Positions 13,375 to 56,451 of a stretch of DNA of 64,000 nucleotides are shown piece after piece. The stretch is taken from assembly GCF_056746865.1 (NCBI RefSeq), contig NZ_CM163382.1. One strand, written 5' to 3'. Both the position numbers and the translations under genes were made by a program. The first letter of the stretch is position 1; the number at the start of each line of letters is the position of its first letter. The notes below the pieces were generated by a model. It was not told the origin of the DNA. It worked only from the letters and a program-made list of their open reading frames with translations, and did not search any database.

Positions 13375-13848
13375 TTATACGCGAGGGCGCTTGCGGTACA
13401 ACCATAATCCAGGAATGGAAAGACCGATGGATAACGCACCAACAATTGATGAAGCTGTAAGAAAGTTGGTTAACAGGGTAATCATCAACGGTTCGCTGTA
13501 ACCTAGCTGGCTGATTTTTACCGCCGAAATCATTGCGGTATAAGCCGATATGCCAGGGAACATAGGAATAACAGCCGCCACGGTAAACACTTTCGGATGC
13601 GCCAGATACCAGCGCGACCATTGAATACCAATGGTGCCGACCAGCATAGAAGCCATAAAAGTTGACCACTCAATATTCAGCCCGCTGGTCATTAAGATCA
13701 TTCGGGAACCATGACCTATCGAGCCAAGCAGCGCACACCAGCGTAACGCCCGCACGGGAACGTTGAACACCATCGCAAAGCCGACCGCAGGAATGGCGGC
13801 GAGGATCATATCCTGCGCCAACGCTAACAGAAATTCGATCACACCCAT
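13375..13848 (-). CDS. yjjB: inner membrane protein YjjB (putative succinate exporter subunit, ThrE family)
   Basis: ORF-track frame 13375..13863; start trimmed to 13848 (MGVIEF..., 157 aa); hydrophobic throughout. Confidence 0.82.
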
Positions 13849-14609
13849 CCGCGTAGCCCCCAAATCGTCAGTGCCATTACTACGCCGACGCAGGTAGCCA
13901 GTGTCAGCAGACTGGCGATCGCCCAGCGTGCCAGTCCGGTATTGATGTGGCCTTTAAACATATCGGCGACGGCATTAATCAACGGAAAACCCGGCACCAG
14001 CAGCAGAACGCTGGCGGCCATCGCGATAGTGGGTGTATTGCTGAAAGTGGGAAGTTGCAAAAGCAAACCGGAAATGGTGGTGGCGGCGAAAGCGGTGAGG
14101 CAAAAGTTGATCTGTGGATGAAGATGACGTTGTGCCAGCAGCTGGCGGATATACATCGCGACCGTACTGGCAAAGAAGGTGATGACGGCACCATCCCAGC
14201 CACCTTTATTGAGTTTACAGAAACAGGCGCAAGAAAGGCCGACCATTAAGGCTACCAGCCATCTCGGGTAACGTAATGGCTGAATTTGGCTAAATCGTTT
14301 CTCTACACCTTTGTAATCCAGCAGATGATGCTCCGCCAGAATCACAATGTGCTGGACTTCAGTCACCACATGCATATTAATGCCGCGATCTTGATTTTTT
14401 CGTGTCGATGTCAGGCATTGCCCATCTTTAATAGTTGTCAGCACTATGGCGTTCGAAGAGATAGAACTTTCGACGCTGTCCATTCCCAGCGCCCGACCCA
14501 GTCGTGAGGAAAGCTCATCAACCAACGCGCTTTCCGCACCATGTTGCAAAAGAAATAATCCACACTGGATACAAAGCCGTGTTACGGCTCGCTGTTGCTC
14601 AGTTTGCAT
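13839..14609 (-). CDS. yjjP: inner membrane protein YjjP (putative succinate exporter subunit)
   Basis: ORF-track frame 13839..14672; start trimmed to 14609 ([12 protein letters not shown], 256 aa); overlaps yjjB start by 10 bp. Confidence 0.82.
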
Positions 14610-14672
14610 AACTCGCCCTTTGTCATAGACGTGCTGCGTATTGTTCAGATAATGAGAATCCATTTGTATCAT

Positions 14673-15227
14673 GAAGCACGGTTGTTTTGCGGTAGGTTAA
14701 GATCAAAATTGCGCTGATTAATCCTGGTTATCGGGAGAAGCTCGGTGATAAAAAGCGAATTATCTCTCGTCGCAAATAAATTATCACATGAATATTATCA
14801 CTATAATGAATTTATTGTTTAGCCTTTACGAATCAGGATAAAAGATAACTGGGCGCGTTTTTTAATTTTTACAAGTTAAAACTATCAGATTTTATTGAAT
14901 AAATATTGATTGTGTGATTTTGCATTCTACTGGAAGGGATATCAGTTAATTATAAATTAAATGAATGAGAATTCTGTTTTTCATTAAGTATTTCTAACAA
15001 CTTAATGTAGATATTTTAAATGTCTCCAGGCTATTTCACCAGGTTATCATTTGATGCTAACCTTCTGACACATGCAGTGGAGTTGTTGTGCAGCAGGAGT
15101 ATGCTGATATGAAAGTGAATGCTAAGGATAATTTATTCGCTTAATCTATTAATTTGCTGGAAACATTTAAGGAATGAATATCCTGAATAAACCATCATAA
15201 TTTTTAGACAGTGGATGTGGAGGAAAT
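14673..15227. promoter_or_regulatory. long AT-rich intergenic region upstream of yjjQ-bglJ (and yjjP on the opposite strand); expected H-NS-silenced promoter region
   Basis: Visibly AT-rich 555 bp with many A/T tracts; H-NS silencing and LeuO activation of yjjQ-bglJ is established knowledge, not read from sequence. Confidence 0.45.
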
Positions 15228-15953
15228 ATGTTGCCAGGATGCTGCAAAAATGGAATTGTTATCAGTAAAATACCTGTTATGCAAGCAGGGTTAAAAGAGG
15301 TCATGAGGACTCACTTCCCTGAATATGAAATAATATCCAGCGCCTCTGCGGAGGACCTTACCTTATTACAATTACGTCGTTCCGGATTAGTCATTGCTGA
15401 TTTAGCCGGTGAAAGTGAAGATCCACGTTCTGTTTGTGAACATTATTATTCTTTAATCTCACAATATCGGGAAATTCACTGGGTTTTCATGGTGTCACGC
15501 TCCTGGTATTCCCAGGCAGTAGAACTGCTTATGTGCCCTACGGCGACGTTATTGTCTGATGTTGAACCCATTGAGAATCTGGTCAAGACCGTACGTTCCG
15601 GCAATACGCACGCAGAGCGTATCAGCGCCATGCTGACCTCTCCGGCAATGACTGAAACTCATGATTTTAGCTATCGCTCCGTCATTCTCACTCTTTCAGA
15701 GCGCAAGGTACTGCGGCTATTAGGTAAAGGATGGGGCATCAACCAGATAGCTTCATTGCTTAAGAAAAGTAATAAAACTATCAGCGCCCAAAAAAACAGT
15801 GCGATGCGTCGACTGGCAATTCACAGCAACGCTGAAATGTATGCATGGATAAATAGCGCACAGGGTGCAAGAGAACTTAACTTGCCTTCTGTTTATGGAG
15901 ATGCCGCAGAATGGAACACAGCCGAATTAAGAAGAGAAATGTCGCACTCATAG
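15228..15953 (+). CDS. yjjQ: LuxR/FixJ-type transcriptional regulator YjjQ
   Basis: 241-aa ORF with C-terminal LuxR-type HTH ([23 protein letters not shown]). Confidence 0.88.
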
Positions 15954-16588
15954 AAAAATGCGTCATGAGTAGTATCGGTATTGAGAGTTTATTCAGAAAG
16001 TTTGCGGGTAACCCTTATAAGCTCCATACCTATACCAGTCAGGAGTCATTTCAGGATGCCATGTCGCGGATCTCGTTTGCGGCGGTCATTTTTTCTTTTT
16101 CTGCCATGAGAGGTGAGCGTAGAGAGGGATTATCTTGCCTGACTGAACTGGCGATTAAGTTTCCGCGTACCCGGCGTTTAGTTATTGCGGATGATGATAT
16201 TGAAGCTCGGCTGATCGGCTCATTGTCGCCATCACCGCTGGACGGTGTATTAAGTAAAGCGTCAACGCTGGAGATTTTTCATCAGGAACTCTTTTTGTCA
16301 TTAAATGGTGTACGTCAGGCGACCGACCGACTGAACAATCAGTGGTACATTAATCAAAGCCGAACGCTAAGCCCGACGGAGAGAGAAATATTGCGCTTTA
16401 TGTCGCGTGGCTACTCAATGACACAAATTGCCGAGCAGCTTAAACGCAATATCAAAACGATCCGTGCACATAAATTTAATGTGATGTCGAAACTGGGCGT
16501 AAGTTCTGATGCAGGGTTGTTGGAGGCCGCAGATATTCTGTTATGTATGCGGCATTGCGAAGCAAGTAATGTGTTGCATCCCTATTAA
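15911..16588 (+). CDS. bglJ: LuxR/FixJ-type transcriptional activator BglJ
   Basis: 225-aa ORF with C-terminal LuxR HTH ([25 protein letters not shown]); overlaps yjjQ 3' end by 43 bp in a different frame. Confidence 0.88.
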
Positions 16589-16625
16589 TCCGCATGATGC
16601 CGGGTTTACTTCCCCGGCAGTGCTT

Positions 16626-17414
16626 TCATTTCAGCATACAATCGCCACATTGCTGCACATCCGGTAAGCGATAACGCTGGCAGCAAGTGCGGCGCACCAG
16701 CAGGCCGTCGCGCAGTACCACGGTACGCCAGAGTGGATTATCTTCACCGTTCGTGAGCATTTTCTCAAAAAAGAGGGCATGGCGCAGCGATTCAACCGTC
16801 GCCTCGCCAAGCAGCTGTTTCATCTCAGTCAGATACCAGTTGATCAAATAACCGGTATTGCTCCAGATAAGTTTGCCGTTGATCTCTCCCGTTGCTTCTA
16901 ATGCCTGCACTACCGGAACCAGCGCCTGACTGATTAACGTTTCCATTCGCTGCTGCGGCGAATGTAGTGTTGCGTTTTTATCTTCACACACATCGACCCA
17001 GAAACAGGCGGCGCGTCCGGTTTCGTGAAACTCAACGTGGAAATGTTCCGGCGACACATCTAATGCTTTTTCCTGCGTCAGCAGCGCCAACATTAATGGT
17101 GGCACCATCAGGCCGATATACCATTGCGCCCATAGTGAGATCAGCGGTTTGTTCTCGCGGATCATCGTTGGTTGGTTGCGATAGATATGATCGGAATAGA
17201 CCACCAGTAGAGAACTTAGCGCATTCGTTGATGACCATTGCGCCAGCGTCATGGCGTTAAGCGGAGCGGGTTCATCCAGGCGGATAAACTCGAGCAAATG
17301 TTCACGATGTTCGGCGATCGTCGCCCGTATGGCTTGTGCAAGCCCAGCATCCTGCGGCTGGAGATGCGTTCGCCAGATAACATCTTCATAGAGCGGTGCG
17401 GAACGATAGGCCAT
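16626..17414 (-). CDS. fhuF: ferric-siderophore reductase FhuF (2Fe-2S)
   Basis: 262-aa ORF ending with C-terminal cysteine cluster C-C-x10-C-x2-C (CCQRYRLPDVQQCGDC). Confidence 0.9.
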   Translation of the reverse strand: MAYRSAPLYEDVIWRTHLQPQDAGLAQAIRATIAEHREHLLEFIRLDEPAPLNAMTLAQWSSTNALSSLLVVYSDHIYRNQPTMIRENKPLISLWAQWYIGLMVPPLMLALLTQEKALDVSPEHFHVEFHETGRAACFWVDVCEDKNATLHSPQQRMETLISQALVPVVQALEATGEINGKLIWSNTGYLINWYLTEMKQLLGEATVESLRHALFFEKMLTNGEDNPLWRTVVLRDGLLVRRTCCQRYRLPDVQQCGDCMLK

Positions 17415-18152: not shown

Positions 18153-18261
18153 ATACCATCAATTCTTAAAAAGAATTGCTACCACGGAGGCGCATTCTAG
18201 TGGTTTTCAGCTTTTCGTCAATAGTTAATTATCGCCGGAGGTGTAATTGCTGGAAAAATGG

Positions 18262-18525
<264 letters not shown>

Positions 18526-18530
18526 GATAC

Positions 18531-19562
18531 TTAACCTTTCTTCGCCTGGCGGGTCATAATGGCGCGATACACCTTGAAGCGCCCGGTTTGCGCGATCACT
18601 TCGTGGAAGCCAAATGTCTCATCCAGCACGTCCGGGTAAGGCAGGAAGGCGTTCGCTACAATTCGCAGCTCGCCGCCGCTATTAAGATGACGCACCGCGC
18701 CGCGAATCAGCGTTTGCGCCGCATCGAGGCTGGTTTGCATCCCATCGTGGAACGGCGGGTTGGAGATGATCATATCAAAACGACCTTTCACCTCGGAAAA
18801 GACGTTACTGGCAAAGACTTCACCTTCAACACCGTTGGCCGCAAGTGTTGCGCGGCTGGCTTCTACCGCTGGCGCAGAGACATCGCACAGAGTGAGACGA
18901 ATTTTCGGTGAATGGCGCGCAAAGGCAACAGAAAGCACGCCCGCGCCACAGCCGACATCCAGTACTTTACCTTTCGTGTGCGGAGTTAACGTCGAGAGCA
19001 GTAACTGGCTACCGACATCCAGACCGTCGCGGCTAAACACGCCAGGCAGCGTTTTGACTGTCAGGCCATCGACGCTGTATTCGCCCCAGAATTTATCGGC
19101 ATCAAATTCCGGCTGTTTTTCCAGACGACCAAAATAGAGGCCACAGCGACGGGCGCTGTCGACTTTATTCAACGGCGCATAATCTGCCAGCATCTGTTCG
19201 GCGCTGCGCACGCCGCTGCGGTTCTCGCCAACGACAAAAATATCCGTGCCCACCGGCAGTAGAGAAAGTAAATTCATCAACTGGAACTGGGCTTCCGGTT
19301 TGTTCTTCGGCCAGTAGTAAATCAGCGTATTGCAATCTGCGACATCATCCGCCGTGGCGACCAGACTGAAACGGGCGTTATCCCCCATCTGGCGGCTTAA
19401 CACCTGCCAATGGTGGAATTGCTGGGTATGAGCACGGCTGGCCGCGGTATCTAAACGCGCGGGCAGGTCATCCTGTAAGTCTCCGGCAAAAAGAATACGG
19501 CTTTGTTCGAAATCATCACTGTGACGCAGCAAGACTTCACTTGCCGGGGTAAATGCAGACAT
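18531..19562 (-). CDS. rsmC: 16S rRNA (guanine1207-N2)-methyltransferase
   Basis: 343-aa ORF; SAM-binding motif [11 protein letters not shown]. Confidence 0.9.
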
Positions 19563-19664: not shown

Positions 19665-20078
19665 ATGACATCCCGACGAGACTGGCAGTTACAGCAACTG
19701 GGCATTACCCAGTGGTCGCTGCGTCGCCCTGGCGCGTTGCAGGGGGAGATTGCGATTGCGATCCCGGCACACGTCCGTCTGGTGATGGTGGCAAACGATC
19801 TTCCCGCCCTGACCGATCCTCTGGTGAGCGATGTTCTGCGCGCATTAACCGTCAGCCCCGATCAAGTGCTGCAACTGACGCCAGAAAAAATCGCGATGCT
19901 GCCGCAAGGCAGTCGCTGCAACAGCTGGCGGTTGGGTACTGACGAACCGCTATCACTGGAAGGCGCTCAGGTGGCATCACCGGCGCTCACCGAATTACGG
20001 GCAAACCCAACGGCACGCGCCGCGTTATGGCAACAAATTTGCACATATGAACACGATTTCTTCCCTCGAAACGACTGA
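19665..20078 (+). CDS. holD: DNA polymerase III psi subunit
   Basis: 137-aa ORF MTSRRDWQLQQLGITQW... Confidence 0.9.
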   Translation: MTSRRDWQLQQLGITQWSLRRPGALQGEIAIAIPAHVRLVMVANDLPALTDPLVSDVLRALTVSPDQVLQLTPEKIAMLPQGSRCNSWRLGTDEPLSLEGAQVASPALTELRANPTARAALWQQICTYEHDFFPRND

Positions 20079-25346: not shown

Positions 25347-26640
<1,294 letters not shown>

Positions 26641-27504
26641 TCACAAATATAGCGCCGGAAATATTAACCGGCTCACCCCGCGCACCTTTAACGCATCAGC
26701 CAATGGCTCAACGTCTTCCGGCGTGGCACTCGGCCAGCTTTGCGCCTCGCCATACACGCCGTGGGCATGAAACGCGTTCAGGCGTACCGGAACATCGCCA
26801 AGTCCCTTGATAAACGCCGCCAGCTCATCGATGTGTTGCAAATAATCCACCTGGCCTGGGATTACCAGCAAACGCAGTTCCGCCAGCTTGCCGCGCTCGG
26901 CAAGCAAACAGATGCTGCGCTTAATCTGCTGATTATCGCGTCCGGTTAATTGCTGATGACATTCGCTCCCCCACGCTTTGAGATCGAGCATTGCGCCGTC
27001 GCACACCGGGAGTAATTTTTCCCAGCCGGTTTCGCTCAACATACCGTTACTGTCCACCAGACAGGTGAGATGGCACAGTTGCGGATCGTTTTTGATGGCA
27101 GTAAACAACGCCACCACAAACGGCAGCTGGGTCGTGGCTTCGCCGCCGCTTACCGTTATCCCTTCAATAAACAGCACCGCTTTGCGGATATGGCTAAGCA
27201 CCTCGTCCACGCTCATGGATTGCGCCATCGGCGTGGCATGTTGTGGACACATCTTCAGGCAGGTATCACATTGCTCGCAAACCACAGCGTTCCACACCAC
27301 TTTGCCGTTAACAATCTGCAACGCCTGATGCGGACACTGCGGCACGCACTCTCCGCAGTCATTGCAGCGTCCCATCGTCCACGGATTGTGACAGTTTTTG
27401 CAGCGCAGATTGCAGCCCTGCAAAAACAGAGCCAGACGACTGCCTGGCCCGTCAACGCAGGAGAAGGGGATAATCTTACTGACTAAAGCGCATCTGCTGT
27501 TCAT
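26641..27504 (-). CDS. yjjW: glycyl-radical enzyme activating enzyme (radical SAM plus two ferredoxin-like 4Fe-4S motifs)
   Basis: 287-aa [11 protein letters not shown] radical-SAM cluster motif, plus [12 protein letters not shown] and [12 protein letters not shown]. Confidence 0.88.
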
Positions 27505-30084: not shown

Positions 30085-30235
30085 GATGCCGGATGCCCCC
30101 AGTAGGCCTGATAAGACGCGTCAGCGTCGCATCAGGCAGTCAGCAGTGCTGCCTGATGCGGCGCGAACGCCTTATCCGGCCTACGGGCGAGTGCCGTGTA
30201 GGCATGATAAGAATCGGTCAGCATCAGGCAATAAC
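30085..30235. repeat. REP/BIME elements between deoC and deoA
   Basis: GTAGGCCTGATAAGACGCGTCAGCGTCGCATCAGGCA and GCCTGATGCGGCGCGAACGCCTTATCCGGCCTAC palindromic units. Confidence 0.8.
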
Positions 30236-39551: not shown

Positions 39552-39777
39552 CCGTGACGAAACGGCTCAAAGGCGAGGTATAAATTGAGTTTTTTTGATG
39601 AGTTGAAAAACTCTCTGGAAGAGGCTGTTGAGATTAGAAAGAACCTGCACGGGTGACCCGCTACGAAATTGCAGATGCTAAGGCTATTCGTGAGCAACTT
39701 CATACTCCAACCGACCAGTTGCGTAGCCAGAATGCAATCAAATCTGACAGTCCGCTTCGGCGCGCGCTTTGGTGTAT

Positions 39778-39963
39778 TTACCGGAGTAAATCAGCGTGCC
39801 GTGGAAAATTATGCGCAGCGCTTCTGCTGATTTGCGTACCTTCGCTGATGATAAGTCCTGCACTAGCGTGCTGCGCGTAATAGTCCGCCATTATGTCAGT
39901 CGCAACGTCACCCGCGCGGGAACGCGTCATCGGTGGCATTACAATACGGTTTTTTAATGGCAA
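39778..39963 (-). pseudogene. decayed 5' fragment of an old-yellow-enzyme family NADH:flavin oxidoreductase
   Basis: 61-aa frame PLKNRIVMPPMTRSRA...YYAQHASAGLIISEGTQIS resembles the OYE/NemA N-terminal barrel start, then diverges to a stop; only a TTG start, with an in-frame stop just upstream. Confidence 0.5.
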
Positions 39964-40011
39964 CGCATTCAGCGCATATTTAGCAAATTACGTAATGGGT
40001 CCCTTGCGCGG

Positions 40012-40224
40012 TTATTTGTACAGTTCGGCACTCATGGTGACGGTATTGCCCATGCGAGCGCTGGTGATTTTGTATTCAGAGGCGTTTATCTCTTTCGCTT
40101 TCTGCGCAATAACTGCTTCCGCAGAATCCAGTGTTGTACCGGTTGCTGTTACGCTTTGCGCCGATGCGTTAAACGCCGCGACAGAGAAAAGAGAAGCTGT
40201 AAAAATTGCGATGATCGTTTTCAT
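40012..40224 (-). CDS. small secreted DUF1471 (YdgH/BhsA/McbA-family) protein
   Basis: ORF-track frame 40012..40392; start trimmed to ATG 40224 (MKTIIAIFTASLFSVAAFNASAQ, 70 aa); signal peptide and C-terminal TVTMSAELYK as in BhsA-like proteins. Confidence 0.65.
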   Translation of the reverse strand: MKTIIAIFTASLFSVAAFNASAQSVTATGTTLDSAEAVIAQKAKEINASEYKITSARMGNTVTMSAELYK

Positions 40225-40381
40225 GTTTATATTCCAGAGTGTCTTAATTGTTTGGCGTTTATTAACGCGATGGGGATAGAATACGCCTGCTGCCTGATAA
40301 CATAAATGATACAAATGACAATAGACTATTCTGATTTTGTTAATAATCAGACGCCGGACGTTCCGACGCCTGTCGATTGCA

Positions 40382-40798
40382 TCAGGCAACAAAGTTGTCC
40401 TTCAGCGCCTTGAGACCATCCCGATAGATGCCGGTAAACAGCGCTTCGGCCTCTTCGTTCGTCACATTCACCGGGGTGAATTCACCGAACCATTCCACAC
40501 GAGAAACCTGGCTGTCGGCGGTTTCATGAACGGTAATGGTGGAGAGGTAATCCACCACCGGGAACGGTGCCTGAATAATGGAATAGGTATAACTGCGTTG
40601 ACGGTTATCAAACGCTTCCAGACGTTCAACCACAGTGCCGCCGTCAGAGGTTGTCAGCGAACGAACGCGACCGCCTTCTGTCACTACGCTTTTCGGGATG
40701 AACGGCAGCCAGTCTGGCAGCGCATCAAAGCCGCCCATCAATTGCCATACGGCGTCGGCAGAAGCCGGAATTTCGATCGATACAGTTGTTTTAGCCAT
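40382..40798 (-). CDS. SRPBCC-superfamily (polyketide cyclase/dehydrase-like, Bet v1 fold) protein
   Basis: 138-aa ORF; family assignment by overall resemblance, no catalytic motif verified. Confidence 0.6.
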   Translation of the reverse strand: MAKTTVSIEIPASADAVWQLMGGFDALPDWLPFIPKSVVTEGGRVRSLTTSDGGTVVERLEAFDNRQRSYTYSIIQAPFPVVDYLSTITVHETADSQVSRVEWFGEFTPVNVTNEEAEALFTGIYRDGLKALKDNFVA

Positions 40799-40823
40799 GA
40801 TAATTTTCTCTTAATTTATAGGG

Positions 40824-41621
40824 TTACATTGTTAGGGTGTCGACGACGCCGCCATCGACGCGCAGGGCTGCCCCTGTGGTTGCCGAGGAAAGCGGTGACG
40901 CGAGATAAACCGCCAGATTCGCCACTTCTTCCACATCTGCCGCACGCTGGATGATGGAGCTCGGACGCGAGGTTTTAACAAACTCATCGGCCTGTTCACG
41001 CGCACTGCGTCCCGACTGCGCAGCGGCATCCGCCAGCATCTCTTTCAGGCCATCGGTAAAGGTTGGCCCTGGCAGAATGGCGTTGACGGTCACACCGGTC
41101 CCCGCCAGTCGTTTCGCCAGACCATGAGAGACCGCCAGATTCGCGGCTTTGGTGACGCCGTAGTTGATCATGTCGCCAGGGATTGCCACGCCGGATTCGG
41201 ACGAGACAAAGATAATCCGCCCCCAGCCCTGTTCCGTCATGCCTGGCGCATAGTGACGCGCCAGACGAACGCCGGAAAGGACGTTGACGTTATAGAAGTG
41301 CATCCACTCATCATCCGGAACGCTAAAGAAATCTTTATCGTTGAAAATGCCCAGATTATTGACCAGCACATCAGCCGTTGGGACTGCAGCGATCAGCGCA
41401 GTCACGCCGTCTTCGGTGCTGAGATCGGCCACCACGCCGCGCAGTGACGCCGTGGGAGTTTGTGCCGCAATCGCAGCCATGGCGTCATCAACGCCGCTCT
41501 GTTTACGGCCGACGACAACCACCGTTGCGCCTGCTTTTGCCAGTCCGGCGGCGATACCCTGCCCAATGCCGGAGGTTGAGCCGCTGACCACCGCGACTTT
41601 ACCTGTCAGATCCAGTTTCAT
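40824..41621 (-). CDS. short-chain dehydrogenase/reductase (SDR) family oxidoreductase
   Basis: ORF-track frame 40824..41723; start trimmed to ATG 41621 (MKLDLTGKVAVVSGSTSGIGQGIA, 266 aa); TGxxxGIG cofactor motif and YGVTK catalytic YxxxK. Confidence 0.75.
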   Translation of the reverse strand: MKLDLTGKVAVVSGSTSGIGQGIAAGLAKAGATVVVVGRKQSGVDDAMAAIAAQTPTASLRGVVADLSTEDGVTALIAAVPTADVLVNNLGIFNDKDFFSVPDDEWMHFYNVNVLSGVRLARHYAPGMTEQGWGRIIFVSSESGVAIPGDMINYGVTKAANLAVSHGLAKRLAGTGVTVNAILPGPTFTDGLKEMLADAAAQSGRSAREQADEFVKTSRPSSIIQRAADVEEVANLAVYLASPLSSATTGAALRVDGGVVDTLTM

Positions 41622-41640
41622 CGTTTTCTCACCAGGTTGA

Positions 41641-42651
41641 TTAACGGGTCGGCAGCGGAGCGTTTTCCGCAACCAGATTTTGACGGCGCATTTCTGCCCA
41701 GAATTCAGCCGGAACAGGCGCATTCAGTGCAGCCAGATCTTCTGCCATACGGCCAGGACGGCTGGAGCCAGGAATAACCGCCGCAACGGCCGGGTTTGCC
41801 AGCGCGAACTGCAGCGCAGCTGCTTTAACGTTCACATTGAAACGTGTGGCAATGGTGTTAATTTGCGCCACTTTCTGCTGGATGGCCGCAGAAGCTTTCT
41901 GATATTCAAAGTGCTCGCCGCCTGCCAGTACGCCAGAGCTGTACGGACCGCCCACAACAATATCCACGTTCTGTTCCAGTGCTTCTGGCATCAGGCGTTG
42001 CAGCGCACGTTCGTGATCCAGCAGGGAATAACGCCCCGCCAGCAGGAACGCATCCGGCTTCGGTTCGTCCAGCGCCAGCGTCAGTTCGCAAGGTTCGACG
42101 CGATTCACACCCAGTCCCCAGGCTTTAATCACACCTTCGTCACGCAAACGCGTCAGCGCACGAAACGCACCGGTACGGGCTATGTTGAACTGTTCCAGCC
42201 AGCTGTCACCGTAGAAGTCCTGTGCCGGGTCGTGGATCCAGACAATATCCAGACGGTCTGTTTTCAGGCGTTTCAGGCTGTCTTCAATCGAGCGCAGCGT
42301 GGCGTCAGCAGAGTAGTCATTCAGAATTTTGTTTTTCAGGCCGTGTTCGAACAGGCCACCTTTTTCACCGAAATCACGTTTTGCCGGATCTTCCATTTCG
42401 TCCAGCATGATGCGACCGACTTTGCTGCTCAGAACGTATTCATCGCGTGGATACTGAGACAGCGCTTCACCCATGCGGATTTCAGAAAGGCCAGAGCCAT
42501 ACAGCGGCGCGGTATCAAAGTAACGCACGCCCAGGTTCCAGGCTTCGCTCACGGTGGCGTGGGCCTCGTCTTCCGGAATGGCACGGAACATGTTGCCGAG
42601 TGGTGCGCCACCTAAGCCAATTTTGCCGGGAAGTAAATTTTTGATGCTCAT
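41641..42651 (-). CDS. aldo-keto reductase family oxidoreductase
   Basis: 336-aa ORF; AKR-like N-terminus GLGGAPLG...FDTAPLYGSGLSE; GAGGA ribosome-binding site upstream. Confidence 0.75.
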   Translation of the reverse strand: MSIKNLLPGKIGLGGAPLGNMFRAIPEDEAHATVSEAWNLGVRYFDTAPLYGSGLSEIRMGEALSQYPRDEYVLSSKVGRIMLDEMEDPAKRDFGEKGGLFEHGLKNKILNDYSADATLRSIEDSLKRLKTDRLDIVWIHDPAQDFYGDSWLEQFNIARTGAFRALTRLRDEGVIKAWGLGVNRVEPCELTLALDEPKPDAFLLAGRYSLLDHERALQRLMPEALEQNVDIVVGGPYSSGVLAGGEHFEYQKASAAIQQKVAQINTIATRFNVNVKAAALQFALANPAVAAVIPGSSRPGRMAEDLAALNAPVPAEFWAEMRRQNLVAENAPLPTR

Positions 42652-42693
42652 AAGATGTCCTCAATTATTCGGTTTGGGTTAGGGCGTTTTTTT

Positions 42694-42709
42694 GCTATCG
42701 CCCTGTGAC
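42694..42709. promoter_or_regulatory. perfect CRP-consensus-like palindrome TGTGA-N6-TCACA in the divergent promoter between the AKR operon and the LysR gene
   Basis: TGTGACGTGGATCACA read from sequence. Confidence 0.45.
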
Positions 42710-42784
42710 GTGGATCACAATACCTTGCGAGGTTGTGACTTGATAGGACATAATTCGTCTGACTTAAGTCCTTTGAGGTCTAAC

Positions 42785-43672
42785 ATGATTGATTTACGCC
42801 AACTGAAGTACTTCGTGGTGGTCGCAGAAGAAGAGCACGTGGGACGCGCAGCCGAGCGATTACATATCTCGCAATCACCGCTGAGCCGCCAGATTGCACA
42901 ACTGGAAGAACGGCTGGGGCTGACGCTGTTTGAGCGTAATCAGCAGCGCATTCGCCTGACCGCTGATGGACAGACATTCCTTGCCGAAACACGTTCGTTG
43001 CTGACACACGCCAACCGCCTGGAGTCGTTAGGCAAACGCCTGGGACGGGGGGAAGATGGTGGCTTGTGTATTGGCTATATCGAAAACGCCATGCATTCCG
43101 GTGTGCTTTCTACGGCGCTACGTACGTTACGTGTATCGCGTCCGAATGTGCATATCGCACTTTACAGCCAACCACCGGCTACCCAGATTGAAGGCCTGCG
43201 CCAGCGCAGTCTCGATTTTTCTCTGGTCGACACGCCGCCCACCGACAGCGAGCAGGATCTGGAATATATTCAGGTTCTGGATGATCGAATGTTGTTGGCC
43301 TTACCGCAAAATCATCCTCTGGCGCAGGAGGAAAACCTTGTCGCGTCACAACTTGGCGATGAGCAGTGGATTGCGGTGATTCATAACGACGATGCGCATT
43401 CTCGCGATCATTTTGTCGCCGCCTGTGTTAACGCCGGGTTTAATCCTGATATTCGCCTGGAAGCGGGTGAACCCCTCACGGCATTAGGTTTGGTCGCTGC
43501 GGGATTAGGTCTGGCCTTAATTCAACATAGTCTGCGTCATAATGCGCCGGAAGGGGTGGTATTACGTGAATTGCCGTGGATGAATTATTCAACGCAATTA
43601 TGGGCAGCCTGGCATAAAGCCAACCAACGTCCGCTGGTTTCCCATTTCCGCCAGATCCTGCGCGGTGAATAA
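42785..43672 (+). CDS. LysR-family transcriptional regulator
   Basis: ORF-track frame 42692..43672; start trimmed to ATG 42785 (MIDLRQLKYFVVVAEEEHVGRAAERLHISQSPLSRQIAQLEERLG, 295 aa); LysR N-terminal HTH and C-terminal substrate-binding domain. Confidence 0.8.
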   Translation: MIDLRQLKYFVVVAEEEHVGRAAERLHISQSPLSRQIAQLEERLGLTLFERNQQRIRLTADGQTFLAETRSLLTHANRLESLGKRLGRGEDGGLCIGYIENAMHSGVLSTALRTLRVSRPNVHIALYSQPPATQIEGLRQRSLDFSLVDTPPTDSEQDLEYIQVLDDRMLLALPQNHPLAQEENLVASQLGDEQWIAVIHNDDAHSRDHFVAACVNAGFNPDIRLEAGEPLTALGLVAAGLGLALIQHSLRHNAPEGVVLRELPWMNYSTQLWAAWHKANQRPLVSHFRQILRGE

Positions 43673-54412: not shown

Positions 54413-55129
54413 TTAATCTTCCAGATCACCACAGAAGCGATAACCTTCACCGTGAATGGTGGCGATGATTTCCGGCGTATCCGGCGTAGATTCGAAATGT
54501 TTACGAATACGGCGGATCGTCACGTCTACAGTACGGTCGTGCGGTTTCAGCTCACGGCCGGTCATTTTCTTCAGCAGTTCAGCACGGGACTGAATTTTGC
54601 CTGGGTTTTCACAGAAGTGAAGCATGGCGCGGAACTCGCTGCGCGGCAGCTTGTACTGCTCGCCATCAGGGCCGATCAACGAACGGCTGTTGATGTCCAG
54701 TTCCCAACCATTGAACTTGTAGCTTTCAACGCTACGACGTTCTTCGCTGACAGTACCCAGATTCATGGTACGGGACAGCAGGTTGCGTGCACGAATAGTC
54801 AGTTCACGTGGGTTGAACGGTTTGGTGATGTAGTCATCTGCACCGATTTCGAGGCCGAGAATTTTATCGACTTCGTTGTCACGGCCAGTCAGGAACATCA
54901 ACGCAACATTCGCCTGCTCGCGCAGTTCACGCGCTAACAGAAGACCGTTCTTACCCGGCAGATTGATATCCATGATCACCAGGTTGATGTCATATTCAGA
55001 GAGGATCTGATGCATTTCCGCGCCATCTGTCGCTTCGAAAACATCATAGCCTTCCGCTTCGAAAATACTTTTCAACGTGTTGCGTGTTACCAACTCGTCT
55101 TCAACGATAAGAATGTGCGGGGTCTGCAT
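54413..55129 (-). CDS. arcA: aerobic respiration control response regulator ArcA
   Basis: 238-aa [33 protein letters not shown]... Confidence 0.95.
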
Positions 55130-55224
55130 GTTTGCTACCTAAATTGCCAACTAAATCGAAACAGGAAGTACAAAAGTCCCTGACCTGCCTGATGCATGCT
55201 GCAAATTAACATGATCGGCGTAAC

Positions 55225-55365
55225 ATGACTAAAGTACGTAATTGCGTTCTTGATGCACTTTCCATCAACGTCAACAACATCATTAGCTTGGTCGTGGGTA
55301 CTTTCCCTCAGGACCCGACAGTGTCAAAAACGGCTGTCATCCTAACCATTTTAACAGCAACATAA
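55225..55365 (+). CDS. yjjY: small protein YjjY (46 aa)
   Basis: ATG 55225 to TAA 55363..55365 reads MTKVRNCVLDALSINVNNIISLVVGTFPQDPTVSKTAVILTILTAT; below the ORF-track length cut-off. Confidence 0.55.
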   Translation: MTKVRNCVLDALSINVNNIISLVVGTFPQDPTVSKTAVILTILTAT

Positions 55366-55764
55366 CAGGCTAAGAGGGGCCGGACACCCAATAAAACTAC
55401 GCTTCGTTGACATATATCAAGTTCAATTGTAGCACGTTAACAGTTTGATGAAATCATCGTATCTAAATGCTAGCTTTCGTCACATTATTTTAATAATCCA
55501 ACTAGTTGCATCATACAACTAATAAACGTGGTGAATCCAATTGTCGAGATTTATTTTTTATAAAATTATCCTAAGTAAACAGAAGGATATGTAGCATTTT
55601 TTAACAATTAAACCGTTAGTACAGTCAGGAAATAGTTTAGCCTTTTTTAAGCTAAGTAAAGGGCTTTTTCTGCGACTTACGTTAAGAATTTGTAAATTCG
55701 CACCGCATAATAAGTTGACAGTGATCACCCTGTTCGCGGTTATTTGGTCAAGAAGAGTGGCAAT

Positions 55765-56451
55765 ATGCGTATAACGATTATTCTGGTCGCACCCGCCAGA
55801 GCAGAAAATATTGGGGCAGCGGCGCGGGCTATGAAAACGATGGGGTTTAGCGAACTGCGGATTGTCGATAGTCAGGCACATCTGGAGCCAGCTACTCGCT
55901 GGGTCGCACATGGATCTGGTGATATTATTGATAATATTAAAGTTTTCCCGACACTGGCTGAATCGTTACACGATGTCGATTTCACTGTTGCCACCACTGC
56001 GCGCAGTCGGGCGAAATATCATTACTACGCTACGCCAGTAGAACTGGTGCCGCTGTTAGAGGAAAAATCTTCATGGATGAGCCATGCCGCGCTGGTGTTT
56101 GGTCGCGAAGATTCCGGGTTGACTAACGAAGAGTTAGCGTTGGCTGACGTTCTTACTGGTGTGCCGATGGTGGCGGATTATCCTTCGCTCAATCTGGGGC
56201 AGGCGGTGATGGTCTATTGCTATCAATTAGCAACATTAATACAACAACCGGCGAAAAGTGACACAACGGCAGACAAACATCAACTGCAAGCTTTACGCGA
56301 ACGAGCCATGGCACTGCTGACGACTCTGGCAGTGGCAGATGACATAAAACTGGTCGACTGGTTACAACAACGCCTGGGGCTTTTAGAGCAACGAGACACG
56401 GCAATGTTGCACCGTTTGCTGCATGATATTGAAAAAAATATCACCAAATAA
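55765..56451 (+). CDS. yjtD: SpoU/TrmH-family RNA methyltransferase YjtD (LasT)
   Basis: ORF-track frame 55744..56451; start trimmed to ATG 55765 (MRITIILVAPARAENIGAAARAMKTMGF, 228 aa). Confidence 0.85.
   Translation: MRITIILVAPARAENIGAAARAMKTMGFSELRIVDSQAHLEPATRWVAHGSGDIIDNIKVFPTLAESLHDVDFTVATTARSRAKYHYYATPVELVPLLEEKSSWMSHAALVFGREDSGLTNEELALADVLTGVPMVADYPSLNLGQAVMVYCYQLATLIQQPAKSDTTADKHQLQALRERAMALLTTLAVADDIKLVDWLQQRLGLLEQRDTAMLHRLLHDIEKNITK

Follow-up and report, generated by a model that had tools for sequence, protein, structure and literature searches.

The closest described system to the locus treated here is the yjjP/yjjQ-bglJ region of Escherichia coli K-12 (Stratmann, Madhusudan, Schnetz, J Bacteriol 2008; later papers of the Schnetz laboratory). 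In the published work yjjQ and bglJ form an operon on which H-NS acts as repressor and LeuO as activator. BglJ partners RcsB as an auxiliary regulator, independently of RcsB phosphorylation. It activates leuO, and LeuO in turn activates yjjQ-bglJ; BglJ-RcsB and LeuO make up a regulatory switch which is silenced. The other product of the operon, YjjQ, represses flhDC. Moreover, the spacer between yjjP and yjjQ has been described as a recurrent target of IS insertion in E. coli adapting to the mouse gut.

The analysis presented here followed up an earlier note on the window, i.e., the whole stretch of 64,000 nucleotides that was analyzed. The window is E. coli chromosome and the locus is the well-studied yjjP/yjjQ-bglJ locus of this species. 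The yjjQ-bglJ locus being already known, nothing new in kind is reported; added are comparative support for the start of bglJ, a corrected length of the spacer and evidence that the overlap of the two regulator genes is ancient, a comparative result of modest value. Coordinates, composition, conservation, frame-specific selection, protein fold and RNA folding were computed in the course of this work, and the control by H-NS and LeuO, the operon status and the activity of BglJ without an intact yjjQ are taken from the literature.

Identity, Gene Order and Age of the Locus

Positions 14473-16700 of the window show 100% identity to the annotated chromosome of E. coli strain FDAARGOS_497, with whose record the window is in register from position 4890 on. 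The 2.2-kb region around the locus was matched in 5424 of 5426 complete E. coli genomes and the 91-bp junction of yjjQ and bglJ in 5420 complete E. coli genomes. Across the locus the strain of the window shares about 98% identity with most other E. coli.

The genes are arranged in the order dnaC-dnaT-yjjB-yjjP / yjjQ-bglJ / fhuF. Divergent from yjjQ lies yjjP (13839-14609, minus strand; RefSeq), which encodes an exporter of the ThrE family (Pfam ThrE, E = 1.7e-69) and whose orthologs all align from the ATG at 14609. The gene yjjQ (15228-15953, plus strand) encodes a LuxR/GerE-type regulator of 241 aa. It is followed by bglJ (15911-16588, plus strand), the product of which comprises 225 aa with an RcsB-like atypical receiver and a GerE helix-turn-helix, as seen by Pfam, a profile search and an AlphaFold (AF2) model. 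For both regulator genes the RefSeq coordinates are those of the ORF list. The next gene is fhuF (16626-17414, minus strand; RefSeq). The identification of yjjQ and bglJ as genes of LuxR-type regulators, which had been made from the letters of the sequence, was borne out by the RefSeq names and by the GerE helix-turn-helix in both proteins (PF00196; 32.5 bits for YjjQ and 47.5 bits for BglJ at a cut-off of 23.5 bits). Likewise, the description as a known cryptic regulatory locus agrees with the published H-NS-repressed, LeuO-activated operon.

Within the 37-nt gap of the convergent genes bglJ and fhuF, RNA folding revealed a stable GC-rich hairpin (16592-16623) with -17.8 kcal/mol and z = -3.84, and none of 200 shuffled sequences folded as well. 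This hairpin is predicted to be, probably, a terminator shared by both genes.

For the comparison of orthologs 30 loci were taken from genomes representing one strain per species, and in 25 of them the junction of yjjQ and bglJ was intact. These 25 loci derive from Escherichia spp., many Citrobacter, Salmonella enterica subsp. arizonae and Intestinirhabdus, and in all four genera the locus is situated between yjjP and fhuF. Because of this shared position any horizontal acquisition must have been ancient, and the term “xenogeneic”, if it is understood as recent acquisition, appears doubtful. With 44.6% GC in yjjQ and 45.3% in bglJ, the two genes are nevertheless poorer in GC than the neighboring genes with 51-53%. 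The only domain that YjjQ and BglJ share is the helix-turn-helix, with 40% identity over 53 residues. A recent tandem duplication as source of the gene pair was rejected for this reason, and any duplication would likewise have to be ancient.

The AT-Rich Spacer between yjjP and yjjQ

The earlier note had described a 555-bp AT-rich region in front of yjjQ, and of this statement the composition stood and the length did not. The region in question (14673-15227) contains 31.9% GC vs. 52.2% for the 64-kb window, so that its AT content is clearly elevated relative to the window average. Its left border, on the other hand, depends on an extension of the yjjP ORF by 21 codons (14610-14672, minus strand) which is not conserved: it is interrupted by stops in several Citrobacter and has no ATG in other Escherichia, although the block of nucleotides around it is nevertheless conserved among the orthologs. 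Since the extension beyond the ATG at 14609 is not conserved and RefSeq also places the start there, the true divergent spacer reaches from 14610 to 15227 and comprises 618 bp with 32.7% GC. Promoters as well as H-NS and LeuO sites were reportedly mapped by Stratmann in 2008 within a “555-bp intergenic region”, with H-NS bound at its center. The published length of 555 bp rests on the older, longer ORF of yjjP.

How unusual this composition is depends on the reference. A GC content as low as that of 14673-15227 occurs in no more than 0.24% of all 555-bp windows, and the minimum of the 64 kb (30.8%) falls into the yjjP-yjjQ spacer. Compared with intergenic DNA the difference is smaller, and it could be argued that the AT-richness is ordinary intergenic composition which is unrelated to silencing. 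When all 39 annotated intergenic gaps with a length of 50 bp or more are ranked, the 618-bp spacer has the fourth lowest GC content, i.e., three other gaps of the window show equal or lower values (31.0-32.1%), and it lies only about 1.4 sd under the intergenic mean (43.1%, sd 7.3, for the other 38 gaps). However, the median length of these 38 gaps is 138 bp, and the spacer is the longest intergenic gap of the window as well as the site of its lowest 555-bp stretch. The spacer stands out by being both long and AT-rich, and not by its AT-richness alone.

The orthologs speak against ordinary composition as well. In 27 of 27 orthologous loci the 500 nt 5′ of yjjQ have a GC content of 31-41%. In the Citrobacter amalonaticus group and in Intestinirhabdus about 2 kb separate yjjP from yjjQ, and the AT-rich tract is still found beside yjjQ; in the one locus that was looked at (L011) the intervening 2 kb or so carry a gene for an FAD-monooxygenase and a gene for an AraC-type regulator. 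Because the upstream GC content is low even where other genes part yjjP and yjjQ, the AT-rich tract belongs to yjjQ. Further arguments against a merely ordinary spacer are the GC content of yjjQ and bglJ themselves, which is below that of the neighboring genes, and the published binding and repression by H-NS; an enrichment of H-NS over the spacer in ChIP and a derepression in hns mutants have both been reported in the literature. An AT-richness without relation to silencing is hardly credible in the light of these observations, and we regard the spacer as the regulatory region of a silenced locus.

Searches for other elements remained negative: in an Rfam search of 14400-16700 (E ≤ 1) neither the spacer nor the junction of yjjQ and bglJ matched an RNA family, and no direct repeats were found in the spacer.

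Promoters and Control by H-NS and LeuO

The AT-rich upstream region had been proposed as a target of H-NS, and this is supported by a genomic SELEX table in which H-NS is marked in the yjjP/yjjQ spacer (Shimada 2014). The same publication contains promoter predictions for both directions, namely CTGATA-17-GATAAT for yjjQ-bglJ and ATGAAA-17-TTTAAT for yjjP. The former hexamers coincide with the best match of a promoter scan and define a candidate yjjQ promoter at 15104-15132 (plus strand), the position of which is a prediction; its -10 block AAGGATAA..AATTC is for the most part conserved from genus to genus. The predicted yjjP promoter was placed by reading the sequence and is located at 14956-14984 (minus strand).

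The predicted -10 element of yjjQ is found about 95 nt 5′ of the ATG and would imply a 5′ UTR of about 90 nt. Because of this short distance most of the spacer would represent upstream, divergent regulatory DNA, and the earlier designation of the whole region as a leader does not fit the best promoter match. The Shine-Dalgarno sequence of yjjQ, GGAGG, was read from the sequence 4 nt before the ATG (15219-15223, plus strand); all orthologs have TGGAG, and only one of them lacks the complete GGAGG.

According to the published model, H-NS would coat the spacer and keep both divergent promoters off, and LeuO would restructure the H-NS complex, by which both promoters would be switched on. The genes yjjQ and bglJ are carried on one transcript, and YjjQ is translated from its strong GGAGG site.

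The Overlap of yjjQ and bglJ and the Start of bglJ

The genes yjjQ (15228-15953) and bglJ (15911-16588) overlap by 43 nt (15911-15953, plus strand), and their start positions modulo 3 are 0 and 2. The overlap in different frames, which had been noticed in the ORF list, is thus confirmed by the coordinates of both the ORF list and RefSeq, and it is conserved in the orthologs. It contains the last 14 codons and the stop codon of yjjQ and encodes residues 1-14 of BglJ, comprising M1 and strand beta1. Inside yjjQ, 10 nt before the bglJ start codon at 15911 (ATG1), lies a Shine-Dalgarno sequence GGAG (15897-15900, plus strand). An alternative in-frame start codon (ATG2, M19 of BglJ; 15965-15967, plus strand) is situated 11 nt past the yjjQ stop.

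Both start codons are present in 25 of 25 loci of the four genera, with ATG1 at -43, -40 or -52 from the yjjQ stop. The sequence TATGGAGA, which holds the GGAG, does not vary among 25 species, not even at the third base of the yjjQ Gly codon GGA, a four-fold degenerate position. Similarly, GAATGGAA, which holds ATG1, is invariant in the 25 loci, including the third base of a yjjQ Glu codon which is at the same time the A of ATG1. The following Trp codon of yjjQ supplies the last two bases of the bglJ start codon, and after it the tail of yjjQ is weakly constrained: the YjjQ tails of the orthologs read MSHS, TSHL, MLRW and others. The changes between ATG1 and ATG2 (GTC/GTT, GCA/GCG, CTC/CTT/CTG, GAA/GAG, AAA/AAG and TGC/TGT), by comparison, are all synonymous in the bglJ frame.

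The ratio pN/pS, calculated separately for each frame, changes along the junction. Over the 60 nt upstream of ATG1 it amounts to 0.12 for yjjQ and to 4.6 for bglJ. For the whole overlap the values are 0.77 (yjjQ) and 0.27 (bglJ), for the second half of the overlap 0.64 and 0.05, and for the stretch from the yjjQ stop to ATG2 3.9 and 0.06, respectively.

These values bear on the question whether the overlap is an annotation artefact, in which case BglJ would start with M19 at the ATG 15965 and the genes would not overlap at all. Such a start is suggested by the invariance of ATG2, by its spacing of +11 nt, which is frequent among E. coli operon genes according to the literature, and by S. arizonae, where the yjjQ stop overlaps ATG2 as TGATG. 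However, ATG2 has no Shine-Dalgarno sequence, and strong purifying selection in the bglJ frame is evident in the codons that lie between the two start codons (pN/pS 0.05-0.06). The BglJ residues N10, V11, A12, L13, E15, K16 and C17 are invariant in the ortholog alignment, and all of them would be absent from a protein starting at M19. It would also lose strand beta1, which is formed by residues 9-14 in the AF2 model, with a pLDDT of only about 61-66 over residues 1-20. ATG2 as the true start was rejected on the frame-specific pN/pS upstream of it, and an artefact is very improbable. We infer from the comparison of the sequences that the ATG at 15911 is the start of bglJ and that the overlap is real and old.

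With this start the frame of yjjQ runs on, weakly constrained, through the first 14 codons of bglJ to its next stop. Selection within the overlap acts on the ribosome-binding site of bglJ and on the bglJ frame, in which strand beta1 is encoded.

A motif YG[DE]xxEW near the C-terminus of YjjQ coincides with the Shine-Dalgarno sequence and the start codon of bglJ. Because of this coincidence these signals may constrain the nucleotide sequence that encodes the motif.

Frameshifting was considered in addition. A programmed frameshift leading to a YjjQ-BglJ fusion, with bglJ in the -1 frame, was rejected, the overlap being without a slippery heptamer. A frameshift at the tandem rare codons AGA AGA was discarded as well; these codons are not kept in Citrobacter, and a +1 slip at them would enter the third frame and meet an early stop.

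Fold and Relatives of BglJ

The AF2 model of BglJ was built on the ortholog alignment and has a mean pLDDT of 72.5. It consists of five beta-alpha units in standard receiver topology, followed by the helix-turn-helix. A Foldseek search with this model aligned 205-225 columns to RcsB, VpsT and FixJ at full length, and NarL was matched, too. In a profile search of solved structures RcsB was the top match (E = 4e-15); RcsB is the best match of BglJ by sequence and by structure.

The phospho-acceptor Asp and the acidic pocket were sought in BglJ on the basis of the alignment with RcsB, and both are replaced. At the position of the DD which follows beta1 in RcsB, BglJ has E15-K16, and the RcsB sequence “ITDLSM” aligns with “IFSLSA” in BglJ. 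Because of these replacements BglJ is predicted to be an atypical auxiliary regulator which is receiver-like and would not be phosphorylated at the usual site. A protein without acceptor Asp and acidic pocket fits the published role as a partner of RcsB that is independent of RcsB phosphorylation.

Translation of bglJ

From the overlap the earlier note had deduced that the translation of bglJ probably depends on the translation of yjjQ. In its strict form, obligatory coupling, bglJ would be translated only when ribosomes translate yjjQ. Two routes are conceivable: termination and reinitiation, for which the ribosome would have to back up by 43 nt, and the melting of a structure over the bglJ ribosome-binding site by the ribosomes on yjjQ. 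In favor of coupling it can be stated that the genes overlap within one operon and that this overlap is conserved in four genera. The spacing of 10 nt between the bglJ Shine-Dalgarno sequence and its start codon is sub-optimal, and according to the literature the LeuO-driven native operon yields too little BglJ for the activation of its targets, which would be compatible with an inefficient translation of bglJ.

The distance stands against the first route. Reinitiation in E. coli is reported to fall by 80-100% at a distance of 38 nt between stop and start, and known coupled pairs cluster at -4 and -1 (literature), compared to 43 nt in the window and 40-52 nt in the orthologs. As regards the second route, the bglJ ribosome-binding site is not predicted to lie in a stable structure: folding of 130 nt at the junction gave -21.7 kcal/mol with z +1.28 relative to shuffled sequences, and a 51-nt window over the ribosome-binding site gave z -0.31 in the same comparison. 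In addition, bglJ retains an invariant Shine-Dalgarno sequence, which would be needless for a purely reinitiating gene.

Finally, active BglJ is obtained from a transposon allele at yjjQ/bglJ as well as from separately cloned bglJ (literature). In the allele bglJC, i.e., yjjQ/bglJ-Y6::mTn10 with an insertion of mini-Tn10, active BglJ is made constitutively. The cloned gene, placed alone under the control of PUV5 or PBAD, leads to active BglJ in a strain from which yjjP-yjjQ-bglJ had been deleted; the ribosome-binding site used may be the native one or that of the vector. A literature search for translational coupling of yjjQ or for the bglJ-Y6 allele yielded nothing specific. It may be added as an observation on the bglJC allele that it is compatible with read-through translation out of the transposon.

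Given the invariant GGAG and ATG of bglJ, the lack of a predicted occluding structure, a distance of 43 nt that is too long and the activity of BglJ without an intact yjjQ, a dependence of bglJ on the translation of yjjQ is unlikely. Most likely bglJ is initiated independently. BglJ would be translated from the ATG at 15911 by means of its own GGAG at 15897-15900, most likely by de novo initiation on the bicistronic mRNA, and translation of yjjQ may modulate this process in either direction but would not be required for it. The de novo initiation may be weak, because 10 nt between GGAG and ATG are at the long end of workable spacing. Some interplay between the translation of both genes is unavoidable, since ribosomes on yjjQ must cross the bglJ ribosome-binding site.

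A more far-reaching proposal starts from this interplay and assigns to the long overlap the function of setting the ratio of YjjQ to BglJ. The ribosomes engaged on yjjQ would shield the Shine-Dalgarno sequence and ATG1 of bglJ, so that heavy translation of yjjQ would suppress full-length BglJ (anti-coupling), and reinitiation at ATG2, 11 nt past the yjjQ stop, would result in a truncated BglJ. If this were true, the BglJ started at ATG2 would be devoid of beta1 and could have a different or dominant-negative activity toward RcsB. We consider this proposal improbable, more so than obligatory coupling. The reading preferred here, comprising a silenced divergent spacer, a real overlap and an independent initiation of bglJ, can as a whole be put forward with good confidence. 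The overlap should consequently not be taken as evidence of translational coupling.

Comparison with Known Systems

Compared with the published E. coli K-12 yjjP/yjjQ-bglJ locus there is no essential difference, as it is the same locus. The correspondence includes the gene order, the coordinates, the AT-rich spacer, the repression by H-NS, the activation by LeuO and the action of BglJ together with RcsB. The locus belongs to the same class as bgl and leuO, which are silenced by H-NS and activated by LeuO or BglJ-RcsB; with them it shares an AT-rich control region, the silence under laboratory conditions and the activation by a counter-silencer or by insertion of an IS element or transposon (literature). 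A difference from these loci is that the silenced genes yjjQ and bglJ themselves encode regulators of the same circuit. Furthermore, yjjQ-bglJ has occupied its syntenic place in several genera for a long time and is not a recent island.

Translationally coupled gene pairs with overlaps of the type ATGA or TGATG resemble yjjQ-bglJ in that both genes lie on the same strand within one operon and the second start precedes the first stop. In contrast to these pairs, yjjQ and bglJ overlap by 43 nt vs. 1-8 nt, bglJ possesses a conserved Shine-Dalgarno sequence of its own and an occluding structure is not predicted; the pair lacks the traits by which translationally coupled overlapping genes are defined. 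Like RcsB and the regulators of the FixJ/NarL type, BglJ combines a receiver-like (beta-alpha)5 domain with a GerE helix-turn-helix. Unlike RcsB, it has neither the acidic pocket nor the phospho-acceptor Asp.

Variation of the yjjQ-bglJ locus among relatives

Comparison of loci from one-per-species genomes and of complete E. coli genomes revealed that either of the two regulator genes can be damaged while its partner is preserved. In one Escherichia genome yjjQ carries a premature stop codon, leaving 144 aa, and bglJ is intact (L005, positions 3542-3976 of the fetched locus). The reverse is found in Citrobacter koseri, in which an intact yjjQ stands next to a truncated bglJ of about 132 aa (L030, 4228-4626). 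In some lineages yjjQ and bglJ decay independently of each other. Furthermore, one E. coli genome matched the 2.2-kb locus query over only 29% and has an annotated IS1 transposase at the usual place of yjjQ. A further database match, the 436-bp contig NZ_JARVKW010000126.1 of the assembly 'Streptomyces sp. DH24', codes for a stretch of E. coli BglJ, residues 113-225, at 100% identity and is almost certainly an E. coli contamination of that assembly.

The length of the gene overlap is variable as well. Salmonella enterica subsp. arizonae (L022, about 4225-4276) has lost the usual yjjQ stop codon, which makes yjjQ four codons longer, and the new stop TGA overlaps the second bglJ ATG as TGATG. Since yjjQ ends at this later TGA, its overlap with bglJ, counted from the first bglJ ATG, amounts to 52 nt. 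Within the window three other same-strand overlaps of annotated genes are present, namely holD/rimI (20047-20078, 32 nt), yjjI/yjjW (27476-27504, 29 nt) and yjjP/yjjB (13839-13848, 10 nt), and the annotated positions put the two partners of each pair in different reading frames. The 43-nt overlap of yjjQ and bglJ (15911-15953) is therefore long for this region, yet not unique.

Sequence elements flanking the regulator genes

A nucleotide block of the form …TTGATCTTA…GCTTCATGATAcAAA… (14660-14725, in yjjP orientation) is located 50-110 nt 5' of the yjjP start codon at 14609. The block is kept in all four genera; the yjjP ORF extension which overlaps it is not. It is a candidate for the yjjP core promoter, possibly with an extended -10 element of the form TGATAcAAA, or for a 5' UTR element.

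The AT-rich core of the yjjP-yjjQ spacer is flanked on both sides by the arms of a 14-nt inverted repeat, GCAAATAAATTATC (14772-14785) and GATAATTTATTCGC (15127-15140), which lie 341 nt apart. The predicted -10 element of yjjQ is situated inside the right arm. Only 3 of 100 dinucleotide shuffles gave a repeat as good as this one, which may represent paired regulator sites or a chance occurrence.

The genes bglJ and fhuF converge, and the 37 nt that separate their stop codons are taken up by a stable hairpin (16592-16623, -17.8 kcal/mol, z -3.84). This hairpin is probably a terminator shared by both genes; a simple terminator scan did not pick it up.

Further features of the window

Rfam searches assigned three sites to the REP-type element naRNA4 (CssrE): six tandem copies with a spacing of about 100 bp between yjjV and yjjW (26122-26602, plus strand), one copy between deoC and deoA (30105-30181, minus strand) and two copies between the tRNA-Leu cluster and rsmC (18292-18485, plus strand). 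A 217-aa ORF (18258-18911) which begins in the latter array and runs on the strand opposite to rsmC is not a gene. The gene lgoT (5110-6471) is annotated in the matching genome as a pseudogene that carries an internal stop codon. Between nadR and ettA a gene block (39585-43672) encodes a NadS fragment, DUF1471 and SRPBCC proteins, an SDR, an aldo/keto reductase and a LysR-type regulator; this block is not known from K-12.

A second AT-rich tract (55100-55814, minimum 36.8% GC) spans the upstream region of arcA, the gene yjjY and the upstream region of yjtD. The regulatory regions of arcA and yjjY are among the targets of IS insertion listed in a study on gut adaptation.
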